The notes under the pieces were generated by a model. That model saw nothing but the letters and a program-made list of their open reading frames with translations. It made no database searches and was not told the origin of the DNA. 42,559 nt of DNA from a virus (Duplodnaviria; Heunggongvirae; Uroviricota; Caudoviricetes), in the IMG/VR virus record IMGVR_UViG_2872698443_000008; one strand, written 5' to 3'. Position 1 is the first letter of the stretch, and the number at the start of each line of letters is the position of its first letter. A program made the translations under genes and the position numbers. Shown piece after piece: positions 1 to 41,191 of the stretch.

Positions 1-2754
1 ATGAACTGGATTGGTTCTCGGTGGTGGAAATTCGACTTCCATAATCACACTCCGGCATCGGACGATTATGGAAAAGGCCCTAATCAGGCCCAGTATATGC
101 AGATCACTCATAAAGATTGGCTGCTCAACTACATGCGACAAGGCATCGATTGTGTCGCTGTCACGGACCATAATTCAGGCGCTTGGATTGATCCGCTCAA
201 GCAGGCACTCAAGGAACTGGCATCTGAGAGTCATGAAGATTATCGACCACTCTACTTATTCCCAGGTGTTGAGCTTACTGTTCAGGGGAATATCCATATT
301 CTGGCCATTTTCGGCGAAGACAAGACAACCTCTGATATCGACTCACTGCTTGGTGCGGTCAGGTATCGCGGCACCAAAGGAAAGAGCGACGGCTGCTCTG
401 AATGCTCAGCAGTTGAGGTGATCGACGAAATTGCTAGGTCAGGAGGACTTGCAATACCTGCTCATGTAGATCAGGCTAGCGGACTTTTTACGGTCTGTAC
501 GGGCAACACACTAGAGCAGGTGCTTGACAACAAATGTGTTTTTGCTATGGAGGTAACGGACCTTGCTAAAGCAAAACCGCAGCTCTATATTGGCAAGAAT
601 TTGAATTGGGCAGAGATTCTTGGAACCGATTCCCATCATCCGTCCGGTACCGGAAATCAACGCTACCCGGGTAGCCATTTCACTTGGGTAAAAATGTCGG
701 AGCCATCTTATGACGGATTACGGCTGGCGCTCGTTGATGGGGCTCTTTCACTGAAGCGGTCGGACAACTTCACTGGTGACCCAAATATCCATGGACAACT
801 TGCCATCGAAAGTATCGTGGTTGATGATGCGAAGTACTTAGGACGAGGGCAATCTTTAACTTGTCAACTGAACCCCTGGCTCAACACTATCATTGGTGGA
901 CGAGGCACTGGGAAATCGACTTCGTTGGAATTCCTGCGGATTGCTCTTAAACGAAAGGGAGAAATCCCCAAGAGCCTTGAAAAGGAATTTACCAAATACA
1001 GTCAAACTTCGAAAGACCGCCAAGATGAAGGGCTGTTAAAAGATTCCACGAAAATAACTGTAGGCTTTCGAAAAGACGGTGGCCGTTTCCGAATCACCTG
1101 GTCTAATACCGACGACATATACAGCATCGAGGAAGAGACCGCTCCCGGAGTCTGGTGTGATTCCGAGGGAGACATAGCACAACGATTTCCTGTCAGGATT
1201 TACAGCCAGAAACAGATATTCGAATTGGCAAAGCATCCCCAAGCACTCTTGCAGGTTGTCGATGATGCCCCGGAGGTCAATCATCGTGATTGGCAGCTTA
1301 AGTGGGATGAACTGGTTTCCAAATATCTCTCGCTTCGCGCCCAAGAGCGTGAAGTTCAGGCTGGGCTTCAGGAAGAATCGGTAACCAAAGGTCAGCTTGA
1401 AGACGTCAAACGCAAACTCGATGTTTTTGAAAAGGCGGGCCACGCGGATGTCCTTAAGGCTTACCAACTCAGACAGAACCAGAGTAAGGCTATGGACTCC
1501 TGGGTAACGACTTGGGAGGATTCCGCCGAACAGGTCCGAGATATTTCTGGAAGCCTACTGCCAGCAGAATTGGATTTACAATATTTCGACATTGGGAATG
1601 CGGATGACAAAGAACTCTTCGATACCATCAAGGACATCCGTGCGACGTTTGAGAAGCTTCAGACAGAGATGAACTCGATCGCGCAGCGGATTGATGATGT
1701 GAAGAACTCATGGAATCAAACTCGATCAGACTTGGGAATATCGAAAAGAATTACAGCGGCGAGCCATGAATACAACGCCCTCCTCGGTCAACTCAGCGCA
1801 GCAGACGCAGGTGATCCATCTGCATATGGTGTTCTGGTTAAGCAGCGACAAGATTTCGAAGATAAGCTCAAGGGATTCGACAAAAAGAGAGAAACTCTTG
1901 CGCAGCATCAGAAGAGCGCGGAAGAATACTTGGTCAAACTCCATGAGCATCGAGCATTGATAACCAAACTTCGTGAGGACTTTCTCAAGGATACTCTCGT
2001 CGGCAATTCATATGTACAGATCAATGTCATTCCGTTTGGAAACAAGATTACGGTTGAGGAAGAATTCCGTAACCTGATCGGCCGCAGTGGTGGCGGATTT
2101 GACCGCGACATTGGAGTTGTTGACGGGGATGAGGGCTTGCTGGCTTATTTAACGCAAGACCAATCCAATACTATGGATGATAAAATTGAGAAAATAAAAT
2201 CATCGCTACTTGCAATCCATGAAAACGATACTATGGCGGTGGAATCCTGCAAAGATCGACGTTTTGTATCCCTCATTCAGGGGCTAACTCCGGAACAGAT
2301 AGATCGAATTCAGTGCTGGTTTCCAGGCGATTCTCTGGATATCAGATATAGCCTCAAGAACGGCGAGAGTTTCAAACCCGTAGAGCAAGGATCTCCGGGG
2401 CAAAAAACGGCGGCTCTCCTTGCATTTATCCTTTCATATGGCAATGAGCCTCTTATACTTGATCAGCCTGAGGATGATCTTGATAACCACTTAATCTATG
2501 ATCTTATCGTGACGCAATTGCGTGAGATCAAACAAAAACGGCAGGTTTTAGTAGTCACGCACAACGCTAACATCGTCGTGAATGGTGACGCGGAAAACGT
2601 CATTGCCCTTGATATTCGGTCTGGTCAAACCAGAATTGTGGCGCAAGGGGGTCTTCAAGAACCTTCCATACGCGATGAGATATGCCGAGTGATGGAAGGT
2701 GGCAAAGAGGCCTTTACCCAAAGATATAAACGAATCAATGCAGCAATCAAATAG
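1..2754 (+). CDS. PHP-domain phosphoesterase fused to ABC/SMC-type ATPase with central coiled coil (917 aa); candidate single-gene defence protein
   Basis: Full-length ORF from position 1. N-terminal PHP motifs FDFHNHT, VTDHNS, PAHVD, GTDSHH. Walker A GGRGTGKST at nt 895-921. Long E/K/Q/L-rich region (aa ~400-700). C-terminal ABC signature-like SPGQKTAAL, Walker B LILDQPEDDLD (nt ~2461-2490), H-loop VVTHNANIV. Confidence 0.8.
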   Translation: MNWIGSRWWKFDFHNHTPASDDYGKGPNQAQYMQITHKDWLLNYMRQGIDCVAVTDHNSGAWIDPLKQALKELASESHEDYRPLYLFPGVELTVQGNIHILAIFGEDKTTSDIDSLLGAVRYRGTKGKSDGCSECSAVEVIDEIARSGGLAIPAHVDQASGLFTVCTGNTLEQVLDNKCVFAMEVTDLAKAKPQLYIGKNLNWAEILGTDSHHPSGTGNQRYPGSHFTWVKMSEPSYDGLRLALVDGALSLKRSDNFTGDPNIHGQLAIESIVVDDAKYLGRGQSLTCQLNPWLNTIIGGRGTGKSTSLEFLRIALKRKGEIPKSLEKEFTKYSQTSKDRQDEGLLKDSTKITVGFRKDGGRFRITWSNTDDIYSIEEETAPGVWCDSEGDIAQRFPVRIYSQKQIFELAKHPQALLQVVDDAPEVNHRDWQLKWDELVSKYLSLRAQEREVQAGLQEESVTKGQLEDVKRKLDVFEKAGHADVLKAYQLRQNQSKAMDSWVTTWEDSAEQVRDISGSLLPAELDLQYFDIGNADDKELFDTIKDIRATFEKLQTEMNSIAQRIDDVKNSWNQTRSDLGISKRITAASHEYNALLGQLSAADAGDPSAYGVLVKQRQDFEDKLKGFDKKRETLAQHQKSAEEYLVKLHEHRALITKLREDFLKDTLVGNSYVQINVIPFGNKITVEEEFRNLIGRSGGGFDRDIGVVDGDEGLLAYLTQDQSNTMDDKIEKIKSSLLAIHENDTMAVESCKDRRFVSLIQGLTPEQIDRIQCWFPGDSLDIRYSLKNGESFKPVEQGSPGQKTAALLAFILSYGNEPLILDQPEDDLDNHLIYDLIVTQLREIKQKRQVLVVTHNANIVVNGDAENVIALDIRSGQTRIVAQGGLQEPSIRDEICRVMEGGKEAFTQRYKRINAAIK

Positions 2755-2860
2755 AACGGAGTTGCACTTGAACGGCAATTGCGCTGAGCTCAATTGCCGC
2801 CAATGCTTGGTCGTTAACGTCTGCTCCTGGCACAGGGCTGCTGTTGCAGCCCTGACAACC

Positions 2861-3076
2861 TTAGACTTCAATCGATTCAGAGATCTCTAACGCATCATCG
2901 ACTTCAATGCCCAGATAACGGAATGTGCTTTCCAGTTTCTTATGACCCAACAGAAGTTGAATCACCCGAAGATTCTTGGTCAGCGGACAATAGGTGCAAC
3001 GCCATATTGAACCCTTAAGACTAAAGTGGACCGATATAGTAAGCGTTACACTGACCCGTTGCCAGCATCGAAATGC
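2861..3076 (-). pseudogene. Tyrosine recombinase C-terminal remnant (no start codon, ~70 codons open)
   Basis: Minus-strand translation reads ...TKNLRVIQLLLGHKKLESTFRYLGIEVDDALEISESIEV*, resembling the LLGH...Y box II region of integrases/Xer recombinases. Upstream frame closed by a stop at 3077-3079. Confidence 0.4.
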
Positions 3077-3344
3077 CTAAGCTACGAAAACTCTTTGACG
3101 GACATAATGTTCCTCATGTTTGCCACATGTCTCCGATTGAGCACAACTATAGTCTGCTGATGAGACTAATTATGGCACTGAGCAGACCTGCTCGCTAGGC
3201 GAGATCCGCTGTGAGCGAATTGCAGAGGTCTCGAATATGCTTGATAATAATGCTTGAAGATATAATTGGTATGAGCCTGAAAATTTATTTTTAAAGAATT
3301 ATTAAATACTGCCGATGTTAATAATTATACTAAAAAAAAGGAAC

Positions 3345-3851
3345 ATGGAATTTATGTTAAATTTAGACGAAATGTGCAGCGCATTAAGAAAACAATACTC
3401 TATAACGGCTGGTCAAGATGGTGAGAAATATGCTAGTAGATGGCTGGAAAAATCCAAGTGGAAATTTGAACATGTTGAGCAAGGAATAAATACTTTATCT
3501 GCAAACTTGAAATCATATGGGGGGAAACGCCCCGATTTCATTATTGACGCTGACGAATCCTCTTATATTCTTTTAGATGCGAAGTATCACTCAACAGATG
3601 GGTGTACCTCCTTTACACTTACTGATTGTGAAATAGGAAAGTATAGAGCACTTCAGCAATTCTTAAAAAATGTGTATAGTGATTGTACTTTCGAAGTAGT
3701 CTTTATGGTGTTTCCGAAAGAAAAAAATGGTGACGAATTTACATTTGTGAGTCTAGATGAGTTTGATAAAGGAGAGTGTACGACTCTAGCATCAAAAGAT
3801 GCAACGAAAATTAGTCTACTCTATCGAGATGACTTATGGTTTAAAAGTTGA
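3345..3851 (+). CDS. Small low-GC protein with PD-(D/E)xK nuclease-like motif (about 168 aa)
   Basis: ORF 3315-3851; ATG at 3345 follows AAGGA (ATG at 3354 is an alternative). Motif KRPDFIIDADESSYILLDAKYH (PD ... D-A-K). Markedly AT-rich relative to flanks. Confidence 0.6.
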   Translation: MEFMLNLDEMCSALRKQYSITAGQDGEKYASRWLEKSKWKFEHVEQGINTLSANLKSYGGKRPDFIIDADESSYILLDAKYHSTDGCTSFTLTDCEIGKYRALQQFLKNVYSDCTFEVVFMVFPKEKNGDEFTFVSLDEFDKGECTTLASKDATKISLLYRDDLWFKS

Positions 3852-4193
3852 TTAATAAAAAACAATTGGCTTTCACCATTTTTAATTACTTTTCCCAGCA
3901 TGCCGAAAATGTCTCATTTATTTGAATGATTGTATCTTTAATAGATATATCGCGACTATTCCTAAACTTATTTCTAGTTGTTAACAAAACTGTGTGCTAT
4001 GAATGTCTGCTGTTGGCACATAGCAGTTCTAGAGACAGTGGCGTAAAGTCATGGAGAATCGGTGGAAGGAGGTGCAAACCCTCTCATACAAAAATGCGTA
4101 AAATCAGTAACGGCTGGAAATCATTCAATACTCGCACTATCAAAAGTTCACCAGCCAACCGCGACACCTCCTGCATACGACATGTCTGCGGTT

Positions 4194-4748
4194 TTATATA
4201 ACCCTGGCTGGAAACCTCTTATACAAAGTTGACACACCAACATCATAGATAATAGCCACCTTCTGGCGAGGAACGCCTGATGCAATTAATCGCCCGGCCT
4301 GCGCCCATTGTTCTGGTGTAAGTTTGGGACGACGTCCACCAATTCGTCCCTGTGCGCGAGCAGCTTCCAGTCCAGCTTTTGTTCGTTCAACAATCAGTTC
4401 TCGTTCCATTTCAGCCAGGGCACCCATCACATGAAAGAAAAAACGCCCCATCGGTGTGCTGGTATCAATAGCATCCGTCAGGCTGCGAAAATTAACGCCA
4501 CGTTCGCGCAACTCCTCAACCAGAATGACCAGATGCCGCATACTACGTCCCAGCCGATCCAGCTTCCAGACAACCAGAGTGTCACCTGCCGATAATGTCC
4601 TGAGCAGTTTTTTCAGTCCCGGCCTTTCGGACTTTGTACCGCTTACCTTGTCTTCAAAAATCAGCTCGCATCCTGCACAGTTCAGCGCATTACGTTGTAG
4701 ATCTGTGTTCTGGTCATTTGTTGACACACGTACATAGCCAATAAGCAT
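4194..4748 (-). CDS. pin: Serine DNA invertase (Pin/Gin/Hin/Cin family)
   Basis: N-terminus MLIGYVRVSTNDQNTDLQ with catalytic Ser motif, C-terminal HTH; start taken at internal Met of ORF 4194-4784. Lies next to the invertible tail-fibre segment. Confidence 0.9.
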   Translation of the reverse strand: MLIGYVRVSTNDQNTDLQRNALNCAGCELIFEDKVSGTKSERPGLKKLLRTLSAGDTLVVWKLDRLGRSMRHLVILVEELRERGVNFRSLTDAIDTSTPMGRFFFHVMGALAEMERELIVERTKAGLEAARAQGRIGGRRPKLTPEQWAQAGRLIASGVPRQKVAIIYDVGVSTLYKRFPARVI

Positions 4749-4804
4749 GGTAGATCTCCCTGACAAAAGCAGGAATGATGCCATTTGCTCGTTATTTCTG
4801 CATT

Positions 4805-4828
4805 TTCATAAACGTTGGTTTGGGAGAA
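4805..4828. promoter_or_regulatory. Invertase crossover site (left boundary of invertible segment)
   Basis: ttcataaacgttggtttgggagaa; reverse complement TTCTCCCAAACCAACG shares the half-site plus AA core with the site at 7484-7509, in inverted orientation. Confidence 0.6.
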
Positions 4829-5164
4829 GCGGCAAAACGGAATGTGGGAACAGGGGAAAATCAGATACCAGATATGTCTGCATTTCCATCTGGCAAAAAC
4901 TGGTTTCAGTTACCAAGTGGTCATATTGTCCAAATGTTTTCGATGAATGTTTATGGGGCGGACACTAACGGAACTACAGGTAATTTCCCTATTGCATTTC
5001 CTTCAGGCGCACTGGCTGTTAGTGCCTTATGGTCAGATGGCACATTAACGGCTGCTCCGACCTTTAAACTTATGGGGTACACGACAACAAGGACATCAGT
5101 AACCTTAAAAGTATCAGCCGGAAATGGTTTGTATGGAACTATGATTATCGCAATAGGAAGATAA
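4829..5164 (+). CDS. Silent alternative tail-fibre C-terminal cassette (promoterless, no own start)
   Basis: Open frame 4775-5164 on the opposite strand to the expressed fibre, ending 1 nt before the alternative assembly gene; begins at the crossover site. Confidence 0.5.
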   Translation, partial: AAKRNVGTGENQIPDMSAFPSGKNWFQLPSGHIVQMFSMNVYGADTNGTTGNFPIAFPSGALAVSALWSDGTLTAAPTFKLMGYTTTRTSVTLKVSAGNGLYGTMIIAIGR

Positions 5165-5380: not shown

Positions 5381-5884
5381 TTATTGATAGTGTTTTATGT
5401 TCAGATAATGCCCGATGACTTTGTCATGCAGCTCCACCGATTTTGAGAACGACAGCGACTTCCGTCCCAGCCGTGCCAGGTGCTGCCTCAGATTCAGGTT
5501 ATGCCGCTCAATTCGCTGCGTATATCGCTTGCTGATTACGTGCAGCTTTCCCTTCAGGCGGGATTCATACAGCGGCCAGCCATCCGTCATCCATATCACC
5601 ACGTCAAAGGGTGACAGCAGGCTCATAAGACGCCCCAGCGTCGCCATCGTGCGTTCACCGAATACGTGCGCAACAACCGTCTTCCGGAGCCTGTCATACG
5701 CGTAAAACAGCCAGCGCTGGCGCGATTTAGCCCCGACATAGCCCCACTGTTCGTCCATTTCCGCGCAGACGATGACGTCACTGCCCGGCTGTATGCGCGA
5801 GGTTACCGACTGCGGCCTGAGTTTTTTAAGTGACGTAAAATCGTGTTGAGGCCAACGCCCATAATGCGGGCAGTTGCCCGGCAT
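5381..5884 (-). CDS. insB: IS1 transposase InsB reading frame
   Basis: Overlaps insA 3' end in a different frame, as in IS1 (InsAB' by frameshift); sequence ...[41 protein letters not shown]... Confidence 0.9.
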
Positions 5885-6078
5885 CCAACGCCATTCATGG
5901 CCATATCAATGATTTTCTGGTGCGTACCGGGTTGAGAAGCGGTGTAAGTGAACTGCAGTTGCCATGTTTTACGGCAGTGAGAGCAGAGATAGCGCTGATG
6001 TCCGGCGGTGCTTTTGCCGTTACGCACCACCCCGTCAGTAGCTGAACAGGAGGGACAGCTGATAGAAACAGAAGCCAC
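5803..6078 (-). CDS. insA: IS1 InsA
   Basis: [43 protein letters not shown]... zinc-finger N-terminus typical of InsA. Confidence 0.9.
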
Positions 6079-6356
6079 TGGAGCACCTCAAAAACACCAT
6101 CATACACTAAATCAGTAAGTTGGCAGCATTACCGAAATACCTCCACCATCACATGAGGAACTTATTGAACAGGCCGAATCAGAGAGGCAATTATTGATTA
6201 ACCAGGCCAACGAATACATGAACAGTAAACAATGGCCCGGTAAAGCCGCTATTGGTCGTCTGAAAGGCGAGGAACTGGCACAATATAATTCGTGGCTGGA
6301 TTATCTGGACGCACTGGAACTGGTCGATACTTCCGGGGCGCCAGATATTGAATGGC

Positions 6357-6962: not shown

Positions 6963-7786
6963 GCAGCCCTCACAATGTAATTAAATGAAATATTACGTGG
7001 GCGTGTCTCTGCTGCACCGACAATACTGGTGCTCAACCCCGTTGCCGTTCGTTTGTTATTTTTATTTCCTTCAATCAGACAGTTGTAATCATCATTACCA
7101 ATTAACGAATTGGTGGCATCAATACTGTCCGGGGACAAGGCATTAGTAGTGGAACTTAAAGTCAGCATCTCGTCTGAACTTGGAAGATTTTTTAATGGTG
7201 TTTCATTGCGTGAAATACCCGCGTAAAAAAAGGACTCATGCCTGTGAGCTTCAAAAGAGTCATCCTGAAGACTTAGCAAGGCTCGCCCCGCATCCACTCC
7301 ACGTCCATCATCCCAGCCACGAATAAATTCACCGCGTAAATCAGGCAATTTATTGGTCGGGTAAGCCTTTGCCAGTTCCGGGTATTCTTCAGCAGAAAAA
7401 GCCGCACCATTGCATTTCAGCCAGCCTGTTGGCGGAGTGGCTGAAGGCCACGGAACAGGCACCCCAACCGGTAATGCAGAGCCTTCTCCCAAACCAAGGT
7501 TTTCGAGAGCCGTTTTCACCGTGCCATCCGATTTGATATCGCCAAACGGATTCTTGCGGCTTAACAGCAGCGCACGAAGCGCGGTAAGCAACTGGTCGTG
7601 CCGCGCCTTCTCCAGGCTGGCACCGGATGCCTCCACCACGCTGCAGAGTTCTTCCTGCAACATATCAAAGTAGTCATCATCCAGATCGGTGGCAGGCGTG
7701 CCAGTCTGGGGGTTACCACGGGTAAAACCGTTCTTACCCGCGCCGAACTTATCCTTCTGCGCGGTTTTCGTGTCTATACGATGCAT
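6959..7786 (-). CDS. Tail-fibre protein (constant N-terminus outside, variable C-terminus inside the invertible segment)
   Basis: 275 aa; conserved fibre N-terminus [41 protein letters not shown]. Crossover site 7484-7509 lies inside the gene. Confidence 0.85.
7484..7509. promoter_or_regulatory. Invertase crossover site (right boundary, inside tail-fibre gene)
   Basis: ttctcccaaaccaaggttttcgagag, hix/gix-like with central AA. Confidence 0.6.
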
Positions 7787-24134: not shown

Positions 24135-24634
24135 GATTCGATGATTTTCAGAAACGGGTTAGTAGCTTTCTTCTGCCCCGCCAGGCCAATCAGACGCTGG
24201 CGGCTGCTGGGGTCGAGTCCGAGCATTGCCCCCGTGCTGCTCATCTCGGACTCCTGTTCTTTTTTGGCGGTCAGCTCAGGATTTTTGACCATACCGCCCA
24301 TTGCACCGGTGATGGTGTTGCCCTGTCTGGCAATATTTTTCACGGCACGTCGCCAGAACTCATAGGCCACACACCACCGCTCAAGCACCGCGAGGTCAGT
24401 CACGCACAGCAGGCCCTGACCGCAAAGTTCTTTAGTTGTCAATTGCCACATGATCGTGGCGAGAGGGAGATCTTCTTCAGCGAACCACTCCGGTGGCTCA
24501 ACACCTTTGATGGGCGTAAAAACAGGTTCATCTTTATTCAGGGCTCGCTTGCCGGGGTTTCCGGCCAGCGCCTTGCGCGCCGTTGGCTTGGGGCGACGCC
24601 CGGAACGCCCCGCCGTTCCAGCCATATGCGGCAC
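24131..24634 (-). CDS. Terminase small subunit
   Basis: 167 aa, basic N-terminus, ATGA overlap with the large subunit gene. Confidence 0.8.
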
Positions 24635-27044: not shown

Positions 27045-27380
27045 TTACTCCTTCGAGCTACCAAACTTGTTACCGATTACTCTCATTGCAGCCCCACGAA
27101 TAGCATCGACACCGATCAGCCCCACCCCACCACCAATGGCAACAGAAAGCGATTTAGGCCATCCGACATACTCAAGCGCGGATGCAAAGGTCAACGTCAG
27201 AGCGCCACATAGCAAAATCTCGAGCGTTTTTCGCTTCCAGCCACCACCACCGCCAAAATAGGCGATGCGCAAACCAGCCATAACAATCGACATAATCACT
27301 GCGCCCAGCGGCGTATCTCCACGCCACCAGCTCTGAAACAACTCCAGCCAGTCCGGCCAGGTATTTGGGTTATGAGGCAT
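27045..27380 (-). CDS. Putative holin
   Basis: About 111 aa from internal Met (MPHNPNTWPDW...) chosen because the longer ORF would run through the terminator; hydrophobic segments; immediately upstream of endolysin. Confidence 0.5.
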   Translation of the reverse strand: MPHNPNTWPDWLELFQSWWRGDTPLGAVIMSIVMAGLRIAYFGGGGGWKRKTLEILLCGALTLTFASALEYVGWPKSLSVAIGGGVGLIGVDAIRGAAMRVIGNKFGSSKE

Positions 27381-41101: not shown

Positions 41102-41115
41102 CTTATTGATTTAAA

Positions 41116-41191
41116 TGGTGCCGATAATAGGAGTCGAACCTACGACCTTCGCATTACGAATGCGCTGCTCTACCAACTGAGCTATATCGGC
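41116..41191 (-). tRNA. thrW: tRNA-Thr (anticodon CGU)
   Basis: Reverse complement reads GCCGATATAGCTCAGTTGGTAGAGCAGCGCATTCGTAATGCGAAGGTCGTAGGTTCGACTCCTATTATCGGCACCA. Confidence 0.9.

Follow-up and report, generated by a model that had tools for sequence, protein, structure and literature searches.

Conserved core sites and a truncated small tyrosine recombinase in the att-proximal cargo islet of a thrW prophage

Four kinds of described system come closest to the locus considered here: the integrons, in which a tyrosine recombinase is found with arrays of diverse, mostly one-to-three-gene cassettes separated by co-oriented imperfect palindromes of ~70 nt; the pdif modules of Acinetobacter, which are bounded by two inverse tyrosine-recombinase-type sites of ~27-28 bp; the defence hotspots of prophages and satellites (P2/P4 and the lambda b region), in which deviant-GC, defence-dominated cargo lies between conserved phage genes near att; and the inversion switches, with the FimB/FimE-type invertases of ~200 aa that are essentially a catalytic domain, and the Hin-type recombinase gene flanked by inverted repeats. 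We analyzed a cargo islet, centered on positions 2755-4193, of an E. coli prophage in the IMG/VR record IMGVR_UViG_2872698443_000008; the whole stretch of 42,559 nt (42.6 kb) is referred to as the window. The pieces of this islet are bordered by a conserved family of ~27-bp core sites of two classes, here termed U and D, which also frame the gene for a 200-aa tyrosine recombinase (the small integrase), of which the window retains a truncated copy.

The resemblance to integrons lies in the pairing of a tyrosine recombinase with arrays of diverse cargo and in the sites themselves: 72-nt elements with U and D back to back around a loop are comparable to the R″-L″...L′-R′ layout of the integron palindromes. 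Moreover, many arrays lack an integrase, as in the CALINs (clusters of attC sites lacking integrases), and the cargo here is rich in defence genes; chromosomal integrons and CALINs likewise store anti-phage systems. However, the integron integrase IntI has ~320 aa with a core-binding and an additional domain, whereas the protein here has 200 aa and neither domain; the attC boxes read RYYYAAC and GTTRRRY, from which the boxes here differ, and covariation in the elements described here is no better than in shuffles. Likewise, we found no conserved neighbor or platform beside the small integrase in the manner of attI/Pc, the cargo occurs in either orientation rather than being co-oriented, and the setting is the prophages and plasmids of Enterobacterales. 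With the pdif modules the locus shares the pair of inverse sites, the presence of the same modules in separate replicons, where homology stops at the sites, and an exchange mechanism that is unproven in both. The pdif modules use the host XerC/XerD, whereas here a dedicated recombinase gene is itself one of the modules; the sites have a 9-6-9 build, a different sequence and two hexamer classes, and they occur in temperate phages as well as plasmids. Published hotspots are defined by their flanking genes, whereas the cargo units seen here own conserved borders; a survey of the P2/P4 hotspots (September 2026) left the swapping mechanism open, weighed and doubted both transposons and homologous recombination for exchanges with unrelated elements, and did not mention such sites or repeats (PMC13586616). 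The Ppl and nuclease-fold genes of the islet are in keeping with the cargo of such hotspots. Unlike the FimB/FimE and Hin-type switches, no inversion was found here, the hexamers of the two sites differ, and the sites also bracket cargo far from the recombinase gene. No prior description of the core sites, their grammar or the mini-integrase emerged from the literature that we searched, the motif included, though coverage was incomplete. Prophage defence hotspots and Ppl are already known; the core sites, their grammar and the link to the mini-integrase are apparently undescribed.

Each core, of ~27 bp, comprises two inverted arms of ~9 bp (GTCCGCTnn and nnAGCGGAC) around a 6-bp center. The center defines the class (TCGCTC in U, GTGCCA in D), and U approximates the reverse complement of D except in this hexamer. 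Both motifs stand back to back in the 72-nt U-loop-D elements that lie between unrelated genes, with the consensus AACGTCCGCTCC-TCGCTC-ACAGCGGAC, a semi-conserved loop of ~17 nt, and GTCCGCTTT-GTGCCA-GAAGCGGACGTT; the composite palindrome thus has two box pairs, with AAC...GTT as its outer triplets. From these elements one covariance model (R1) and two half-site hidden Markov models (HMMs, run with nhmmer) were built. In the window, half-site matches at E < 0.01 occur only at 2816-2842, 3203-3230 and 4002-4027, all on the minus strand, and each coincides with a point where homology starts or stops or where GC drops. The sites and the pieces between them are:

1-2815: in-window part of module 1 (the Ppl module), which starts 86 nt before the window, right after a U core
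2816-2842, minus strand: D core at the 3′ end of the small-integrase module, AGCAGCCCT-GTGCCA-GGAGCAGAC-GTT (nhmmer D half, E 2.5e-3)
2861-2980, minus strand: recombinase remnant, codons 162-200 plus the stop codon at 2861-2863 (tblastn, 38/39 identical)
2981-3167: filler of 187 nt, matching, among all loci fetched, only those that carry the same islet
3168-3230, minus strand: degenerate composite site (covariance model R1, 30.6 bits, E 2e-6)
3203-3230, minus strand: U core within the composite site, GACCTCTGCAAT-TCGCTC-ACAGCGGAT (nhmmer U half, E 8.4e-5)
3231-4001: module 2, AT-rich (GC 0.32), with the nuclease-fold gene and cores at both boundaries
4002-4027, minus strand: D core closing module 2, on the plus strand AATGTCTGCTGT-TGGCAC-ATAGCAGTT (nhmmer D half, E 7.6e-4)

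All intact integrase loci lose their homology with the window at 2816/2817, where the integrase module meets module 1. The composite site continues from its U core into a short loop and then a D core without its outer arm (~3168-3187), and the GC drop begins at 3231, directly beside the U core. GC is 0.32 over 3231-4001 versus 0.47-0.48 on either side and 0.51 in the whole window, with sharp limits, which bears out an AT-rich block that an earlier note on this DNA had described. Homology with the loci L003, L008 and L011, phage lambda and viral contigs begins exactly at the core at 4002-4027. A fourth core, of the U type, lies 87-113 nt before the window start (9188-9214 of L001, a locus from the genomes matching the window) and forms the left border of the Ppl module; in the window lineage it has a 1-nt deletion in the hexamer. 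A strict definition by the arms alone (at most one mismatch per 7-mer arm) finds no core in the window, because its sites are degenerate and it is the center rather than the arms that is conserved. Indeed, no part of the site is better conserved than the central hexamer: 76 of the 80 U cores whose discovery did not depend on the seed pattern read TCGCTC, which fits a strand-exchange overlap region. Inverted arms around an asymmetric 6-bp center are the core-site anatomy of tyrosine recombinases, and the same two core types frame both the recombinase gene and the cargo.

The order of the cores in viral genomes follows a grammar. Among the matches listed, at least 120 IMG/VR contigs carry the exact D pattern, for which rough arithmetic gives a chance expectation of only a handful; in these contigs the half-site HMMs called 242 cores, which form 122 consecutive pairs:

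D>U, same strand: 84 of 122 pairs, gap 536-4673 nt, median 1476
U>D: 20 of 122 pairs, gap 15-27 nt in 17
D>D: 9 of 122 pairs
U>U: 6 of 122 pairs
Opposite strands: 3 of 122 pairs

Thus, cargo lies between D and U, and the recombinase gene or the ~17-nt loop between U and D; where an integrase is present it sits in the U>D interval and is co-oriented with it. A longer array can read D / 1.4 kb / U.D / 0.6 kb / U.D / 0.6 kb / U, and 54 of the listed contigs have just two cores, one D and one U that face the cargo between them. The 84 D>U modules represent 67 sequence families, with cargo genes on either strand relative to the sites. Many are defence systems; among their proteins are PD-T7-1, a CBASS cyclase with a 4TM effector, AriAB (PARIS), DarTG, AbiL, LmuB, GmrSD, TIR and HEPN proteins, as well as the arsenic-resistance proteins ArsB/ArsC, SDR and EAL proteins.

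The modules are moreover portable between replicons, with their borders. In 44 plasmids of Klebsiella, Enterobacter, Raoultella and Citrobacter, the Ppl module is found with its bordering cores at 98% identity; the alignments open at the outer edge of the U core and break off within the D core. The whole of module 2 with its non-coding flanks recurs in a P2-like prophage of Rahnella (L101, 81%) and in Citrobacter (L103, 80%), with a U-type core before it in both and a D-type core after it in L101; a more distant homologue lies in the cargo region of an icd-integrated prophage, also bracketed by cores. The pieces of the islet have different distributions: the Ppl piece is on Klebsiella and Enterobacter plasmids, the integrase piece matches 877 E. 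coli genomes and the nuclease piece is in a P2-like phage. At thrW itself, the sister prophage of strain HCP17S3_I4 (L008) reads D / restriction-endonuclease module / U-int-D / hypothetical-gene module / U at the same locus, while in a third variant (L003) the integrase unit is down to a 190-nt remnant, a DUF4365 gene replaces the Ppl module (L001 9215-12117) and another gene replaces module 2. From these layouts the islet has two variable slots, one on each side of the small-integrase unit, between conserved flanks of 275 nt beside att and 190 nt beside pin. The comparison with related thrW prophages that the earlier note had proposed thus finds different genes in the same two slots, and the interval 2700-4250 is complete in only 13 of 5,426 complete E. 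coli genomes, besides the 41,492-bp circular record CP085522.1 (L007).

Two classical loci show the same bracketing. In phage lambda (L092) a D core at 24326-24352 and a U core at 27319-27348 enclose ea31, coding for an HNH endonuclease, and ea59, coding for an AAA ATPase. In the K-12 prophage Qin (L094) the D and U cores at 1645981-1646007 and 1646969-1646995 of NC_000913.3 enclose flxA together with the 3′ part of the annotated ydfV reading frame; no cores were found flanking mcrA in K-12 e14. The lambda bracket occupies the same relative position, between the tail-fibre side and attP, as the islet of the window.

The recombinase remnant is genuine, though shorter than the ~70 codons (2861-3076) given in the earlier note. 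With a full-length relative as the query, tblastn aligns 2864-2980 to aa 162-200 of a 200-aa tyrosine recombinase, 39 codons of which 38 are identical, and nothing homologous lies beyond 2980 in any frame by tblastn or blastn; the longer figure arose because the open frame runs past the true breakpoint. The other 161 codons are gone, and since the LLGH...RY motif is all that is left, the window copy cannot be functional. Against family libraries the remnant gives only a weak XerC-type match in NCBIfam and none in Pfam. RefSeq calls a 34-codon tail (2861-2965, minus strand) a coding sequence, named "hypothetical protein" or "integrase" (WP_015364432.1, WP_412534570.1); this is a pseudogene fragment and not a gene.

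Intact relatives are common. In DNA, 2817-2980 shares 92-98% identity with the 3′ end of intact 603-nt genes; matches to the query interval, mostly across this part, come from 877 E. coli genomes and from many Enterobacterales plasmids. Intact genes reside, among other contexts, in Qin-like prophages, a CFT073-type island and plasmids of Lelliottia, Pantoea, Klebsiella, Enterobacter, Hafnia, Rahnella and others; in L008 one occupies the exact position of the remnant (7038-7640), between a hypothetical gene and a restriction endonuclease gene. The full-length protein matches PF00589 over residues 35-184 (E 7.4e-18), with the RGCD, HSMRR, LLGH and RY motifs seen in the sequence, and amounts to a bare catalytic domain without a core-binding domain or the IntI-specific insertion. 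PF00589 is its only Pfam match; no NCBIfam cut-off is reached (best "XerA / integron integrase", 53.9 bits versus a cut-off of 220, in the catalytic part only; weakly "tyrosine-type DNA invertase", E 1.8e-5) and sequence searches recover no relative in the PDB. Proteobacteria widely carry homologues with 60% identity or more, of which a single scan confirmed 547, and no conserved partner or neighboring gene appeared among 80 loci.

The gene travels within a 709-nt unit with sharp ends, which unrelated loci share at 92-97% identity. Among the Enterobacterales loci that were examined, it starts with AACGTCCGCTyyTCGCTCAt..., ~62-66 nt upstream of the start codon, and ends, 41-42 nt past the stop codon, with a GC hairpin followed by ...GTGCCAGrAGCGGACGTT. 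The inverted repeat that frames the gene in Pseudomonas/Stutzerimonas is a lineage-specific variant of this one, and the D motif follows the integrase stop codon in 21 of 70 loci versus 26 of 1066 control segments. The remnant is hence a truncated copy of a site-framed gene and not the chance fossil of an integrating element. Copies of the unit number one per genome in the median and three at most. In the Qin-like prophage of STEC2018-553, the intact integrase gene is followed, one cargo gene further downstream, by a second copy (L004 4456-4739) that has an internal deletion and is more divergent (76-78%), an arrangement that resembles tandem integrase-cargo units. An invertible switch was also considered and rejected: with the inverted unit in its native flanks as the query, no inversion of U-int-D was found at 80% coverage or more among ~355 genomes that carry the locus at 99% identity or more. 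Two 142,244-bp plasmids seemed to differ by an inversion, but only because their records are in opposite orientation.

We consider it probable, though well short of certain, that the interval is an integrase-less, decaying array of modules that were exchanged by site-specific recombination at the cores and not by random insertions. This reading builds on the site anatomy, the site grammar and the portability of the modules, all of which are established by the loci described above. The small tyrosine recombinase would be the candidate enzyme and the cores its recombination sites. Tyrosine recombinases require matching overlap regions in partner sites; as their central hexamers differ, U and D would act as heterospecific sites that do not recombine with each other, which fits the absence of inverted U-int-D among the ~355 near-identical genomes. 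We infer that modules are exchanged by U × U and D × D recombination: acting together between two replicons, these would swap the intervening module with neither inversion nor deletion, a natural form of recombinase-mediated cassette exchange like that proposed for the Acinetobacter pdif modules. Read along the minus strand, the array of the window runs from the D core (4027-4002) through the nuclease module, the damaged composite site (3230-3168), the 187-nt filler, the truncated integrase module with hairpin 2 and the D core (2842-2816), and the Ppl module, to the U core just outside the window. With 161 of 200 recombinase codons lost, filler in their stead, one arm of the composite site missing and the outer U hexamer mutated, this array is fossilized, and it is probably immobile. 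The earlier note had proposed successive insertions at a hotspot; a mosaic of independently acquired pieces is indeed what we observe, but exchange followed by decay fits it better than random insertions do.

We extend this, tentatively and with our doubts slightly ahead of our confidence, to the proposal that a 200-aa mini-integrase recombining heterospecific 24-27-bp cores constitutes a cassette-exchange system of temperate phages, satellites and plasmids in Enterobacterales and possibly other Gammaproteobacteria, with lambda ea31-ea59, Qin flxA and the islet of the window all as its products. The fast movement of anti-phage systems among phages, satellites, plasmids and islands is an open question, and sequence-defined borders with a dedicated recombinase would make it directly testable. 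Such borders would also offer a sequence handle on new cargo and defence genes (67 families from at least 120 viral contigs) and, if the proposal is true, part of the lambda b region would be reinterpreted. For the window itself the message is more modest: its islet carries a Ppl-family gene and a small nuclease-fold gene.

Several observations weigh against recombination at the cores by this enzyme. The sites of the window are themselves degenerate, with modest scores (E 1e-3 to 1e-5), and 9 D>D and 6 U>U pairs break the grammar. An integrase occurs within the fetched stretch of only 2 of the 120 listed core-bearing viral loci, a rarity that would require it to act in trans or another enzyme to use the sites. 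The core motif is not recognizable around most betaproteobacterial homologues of the integrase; an ungapped 14-mer inverted-repeat test around all homologues is insensitive and gave clear results only in Pseudomonas-type and some Enterobacterales loci. We found no two genomes that are the same but for a single module, and the cores, at 27-30 bp, could also serve phage-encoded homologous recombination. Finally, the covariation score of the composite palindrome does not exceed that of shuffles: this is neutral with regard to protein binding of double-stranded DNA and lends no support to an attC-like substrate folded into a hairpin.

One rival explanation would regard the cores as short conserved linkers, with the cargo swapped by homologous recombination of the RecA or phage Red/RecT type and the integrase as an unrelated passenger. 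The rarity of the integrase in cis, the conserved 275-nt (att) and 190-nt (pin) flanks that could anchor the exchange and the lack of an observed site-specific product all speak for this, but we consider it unlikely: the Ppl module is shared with unrelated plasmids where homology ends in the cores and no flanking homology exists, the cores have tyrosine-recombinase anatomy with the center most conserved, both core types frame the integrase gene at fixed distances across genera, and such exchange has no need of the strict D>U / U>D grammar. The sharp ends of the 709-nt unit and its presence in unrelated loci, along with the unit ends and semi-conserved loop shared by the compact elements, are what one would expect if U-int-D were a tiny transposon-like element with terminal inverted repeats, the 72-nt elements were its derivatives akin to miniature inverted-repeat transposable elements (MITEs), and the modules were simply the DNA between insertions. 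This seems less probable still, as most core-bearing viral loci have a lone D and a lone U facing the cargo with the partner halves absent, and such loci (lambda, Qin and the 54 two-core viral loci) are not producible by insertion of a whole U-loop-D. Moreover, shared cargo brings its cores along, and the copy number per genome is low.

Slightly less credible again is the use of the cores by another recombinase, either a small serine recombinase (Pin-like or of the plasmid resolvase type) or the host XerCD. Indeed, in the window and 4 further viral loci pin lies 190 nt from a D core, on plasmids the Ppl module has serine recombinase genes as neighbors, and the 26-bp spacing of the outer TGTCCG...CGGACA presumably resembles that of resolvase-type sites. 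Yet a serine recombinase is near only 5 of the 120 listed core-bearing viral loci and none of the 80 integrase loci, the lambda, Qin-flxA, icd-prophage and P2-like loci have cores without one, and we take the core consensus GTCCGCTnn-TCGCTC/GTGCCA-nnAGCGGAC to be unlike both E. coli dif and the Gin/Hin-type crossover sites. An accidental pile-up of insertions and deletions at a permissive prophage end, with the remnant a passive fossil and the hairpins scars or terminators, would account for the decay products in the islet (the truncated integrase, the filler and the damaged site). However, all boundaries fall on a single conserved site family, the same architecture is repeated in hundreds of loci and the hairpins are parts of modules, not of junctions; this reading is already disfavored and we give it very little credence, and the site data contradict the view of the cores as chance matches.

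The earlier note had pointed to two perfect hairpins after the Ppl gene, both of which are present:

2773-2799: hairpin 1 in the 3′ flank of the Ppl gene, with a stem of 9 perfect pairs and a loop of 9 nt (minimum free energy (MFE) -16.8 kcal/mol, z -2.6)
2833-2854, minus strand: hairpin 2, 9 perfect pairs and a 4-nt loop, after the small-integrase stop codon (MFE -19.6, z -4.4)

Their suggested role as junction markers does not hold, as the true borders are the ~27-bp cores; comparison with relatives places both hairpins inside their respective modules and not at junction scars. Hairpin 1 is co-inherited with Ppl, for window 2601-2834 matches plasmid pKPC2_Vir (L006 4847-5080) at 97.4%. In the 50 nt after the integrase stop codon of 72 homologues from many genera the median z is -3.2, with z < -2 in 72% versus 4% of control windows; the stem sequences vary by lineage, and several of these hairpins are followed by a T-run. 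Hairpin 2 is thus most likely the terminator of the small-integrase gene, and possibly also a structural part of the D end. Neither window hairpin qualifies as a canonical intrinsic terminator: a consensus scan calls neither, and no T-run follows either. Perfect hairpins with stems of at least 8 bp number 18 in the window versus 5.8 ± 2.3 expected under a Markov model, about threefold, and 3 of the 18 fall inside the 1.4-kb islet interval. The third of these, a 9-bp hairpin at 3297-3326 (AATTATTAA...TTAATAATT), stands in the AT-rich leader ~30 nt upstream of the nuclease-fold gene and overlaps its likely promoter or ribosome-binding-site region. Rfam recognizes no known RNA within 2600-4900 (E ≤ 1).

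The filler between the remnant and the composite site was left by the event that removed the 5′ part of the integrase. No integrase homology was found in 2981-3167 by tblastn or blastn, and among the fetched loci its matches include the viral contig L124, whose fetched stretch starts within it.

The cargo genes of the two modules are:

1-2754, plus strand: Ppl/TrlF-family gene coding for a PHP and ABC/SMC-like ATPase protein, 917 aa (PADLOC, NCBIfam)
3354-3851, plus strand: PD-(D/E)xK nuclease-fold gene, 165 aa (conserved residues, AlphaFold2 (AF2) model, Foldseek)

The former, which the earlier note had recognized as a PHP-ATPase gene, is assigned to the Ppl/TrlF family by its profile matches: PADLOC Ppl covers residues 4-912 of 917 (E 2.3e-157), and NCBIfam TrlF_fam scores 651 bits, above its cut-off of 350, while at 631 bits the stricter equivalog model Ppl_antiphage falls short of its cut-off (1000). 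On the IncFII/IncU KPC-type plasmids of Klebsiella and relatives (L095, L006), the Ppl module has a type II restriction-modification pair on one side and a serine recombinase gene on the other, amid clustered recombinase and Rpn-family genes; with this defence islet of the plasmids the prophage has a module in common. The 165-aa protein matches no Pfam, PADLOC or NCBIfam family at threshold, and the small nuclease-like gene of the earlier note is upheld by other means: E24, D61 and D75-x-K77 are invariant in 26 homologues, and the AF2 model (mean predicted local distance difference test score, pLDDT, 89.4) finds its nearest solved folds in the Hjc resolvases (Foldseek E 2e-4, probability 1.0), the SPARDA nuclease, HincII and PspGI, from which the protein is predicted to belong to the PD-(D/E)xK nuclease fold. 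Both genes are likely anti-phage genes.

The setting of the islet follows from the attachment site. The prophage is integrated at thrW, whose tRNA-Thr(CGT) gene (41116-41191) is the sole tRNA gene found in the window. In matching genomes a second copy of the 3′ 56 nt of thrW (41106-41161) lies 361 nt before the window begins (L001 8884-8939), adjoining a truncated LysR gene and paoABCD; with this repeat just outside the window, the islet is the att-proximal end of the prophage, between att and pin. In thrW phages the gtr genes lie beside attP. The circular "plasmid" record CP085522.1 is prophage-sized, has phage tail genes and is 99.7% identical across the islet; it is probably an excised or replicating form of the window phage, which may thus be active. 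On its right the islet is followed by:

4002-4193: conserved non-coding element of ~190 nt, between the D core and the pin stop codon
4194-4748, minus strand: pin, serine DNA invertase (Pfam Resolvase E 5.9e-52 and HTH_7; pinE in RefSeq)

The product of pin, the conserved right-hand neighbor, is a tail-fibre invertase. The 190-nt element has a mean column identity of 87% across 8 unrelated contexts (individual identities 78-88%) and is homologous to lambda 24162-24352, between ea47 and ea31, left of the D core. It has no Rfam match and no convincing covariation, and might serve the array as an accessory or platform sequence, or encode a small RNA or peptide. Part of it, 4097-4180, is repeated at 88% over 85 nt in the chromosomal ecpE-ykgJ intergenic region of the same genomes (L001 1838-1922), far from the prophage. 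Further to the right, in the tail-fibre region beside pin, two overlapping minus-strand reading frames (5381-5884 and 5803-6078, window ~5381-6100), whose translations we take to resemble IS1 InsB and InsA, are missing from L001, which is otherwise identical there.

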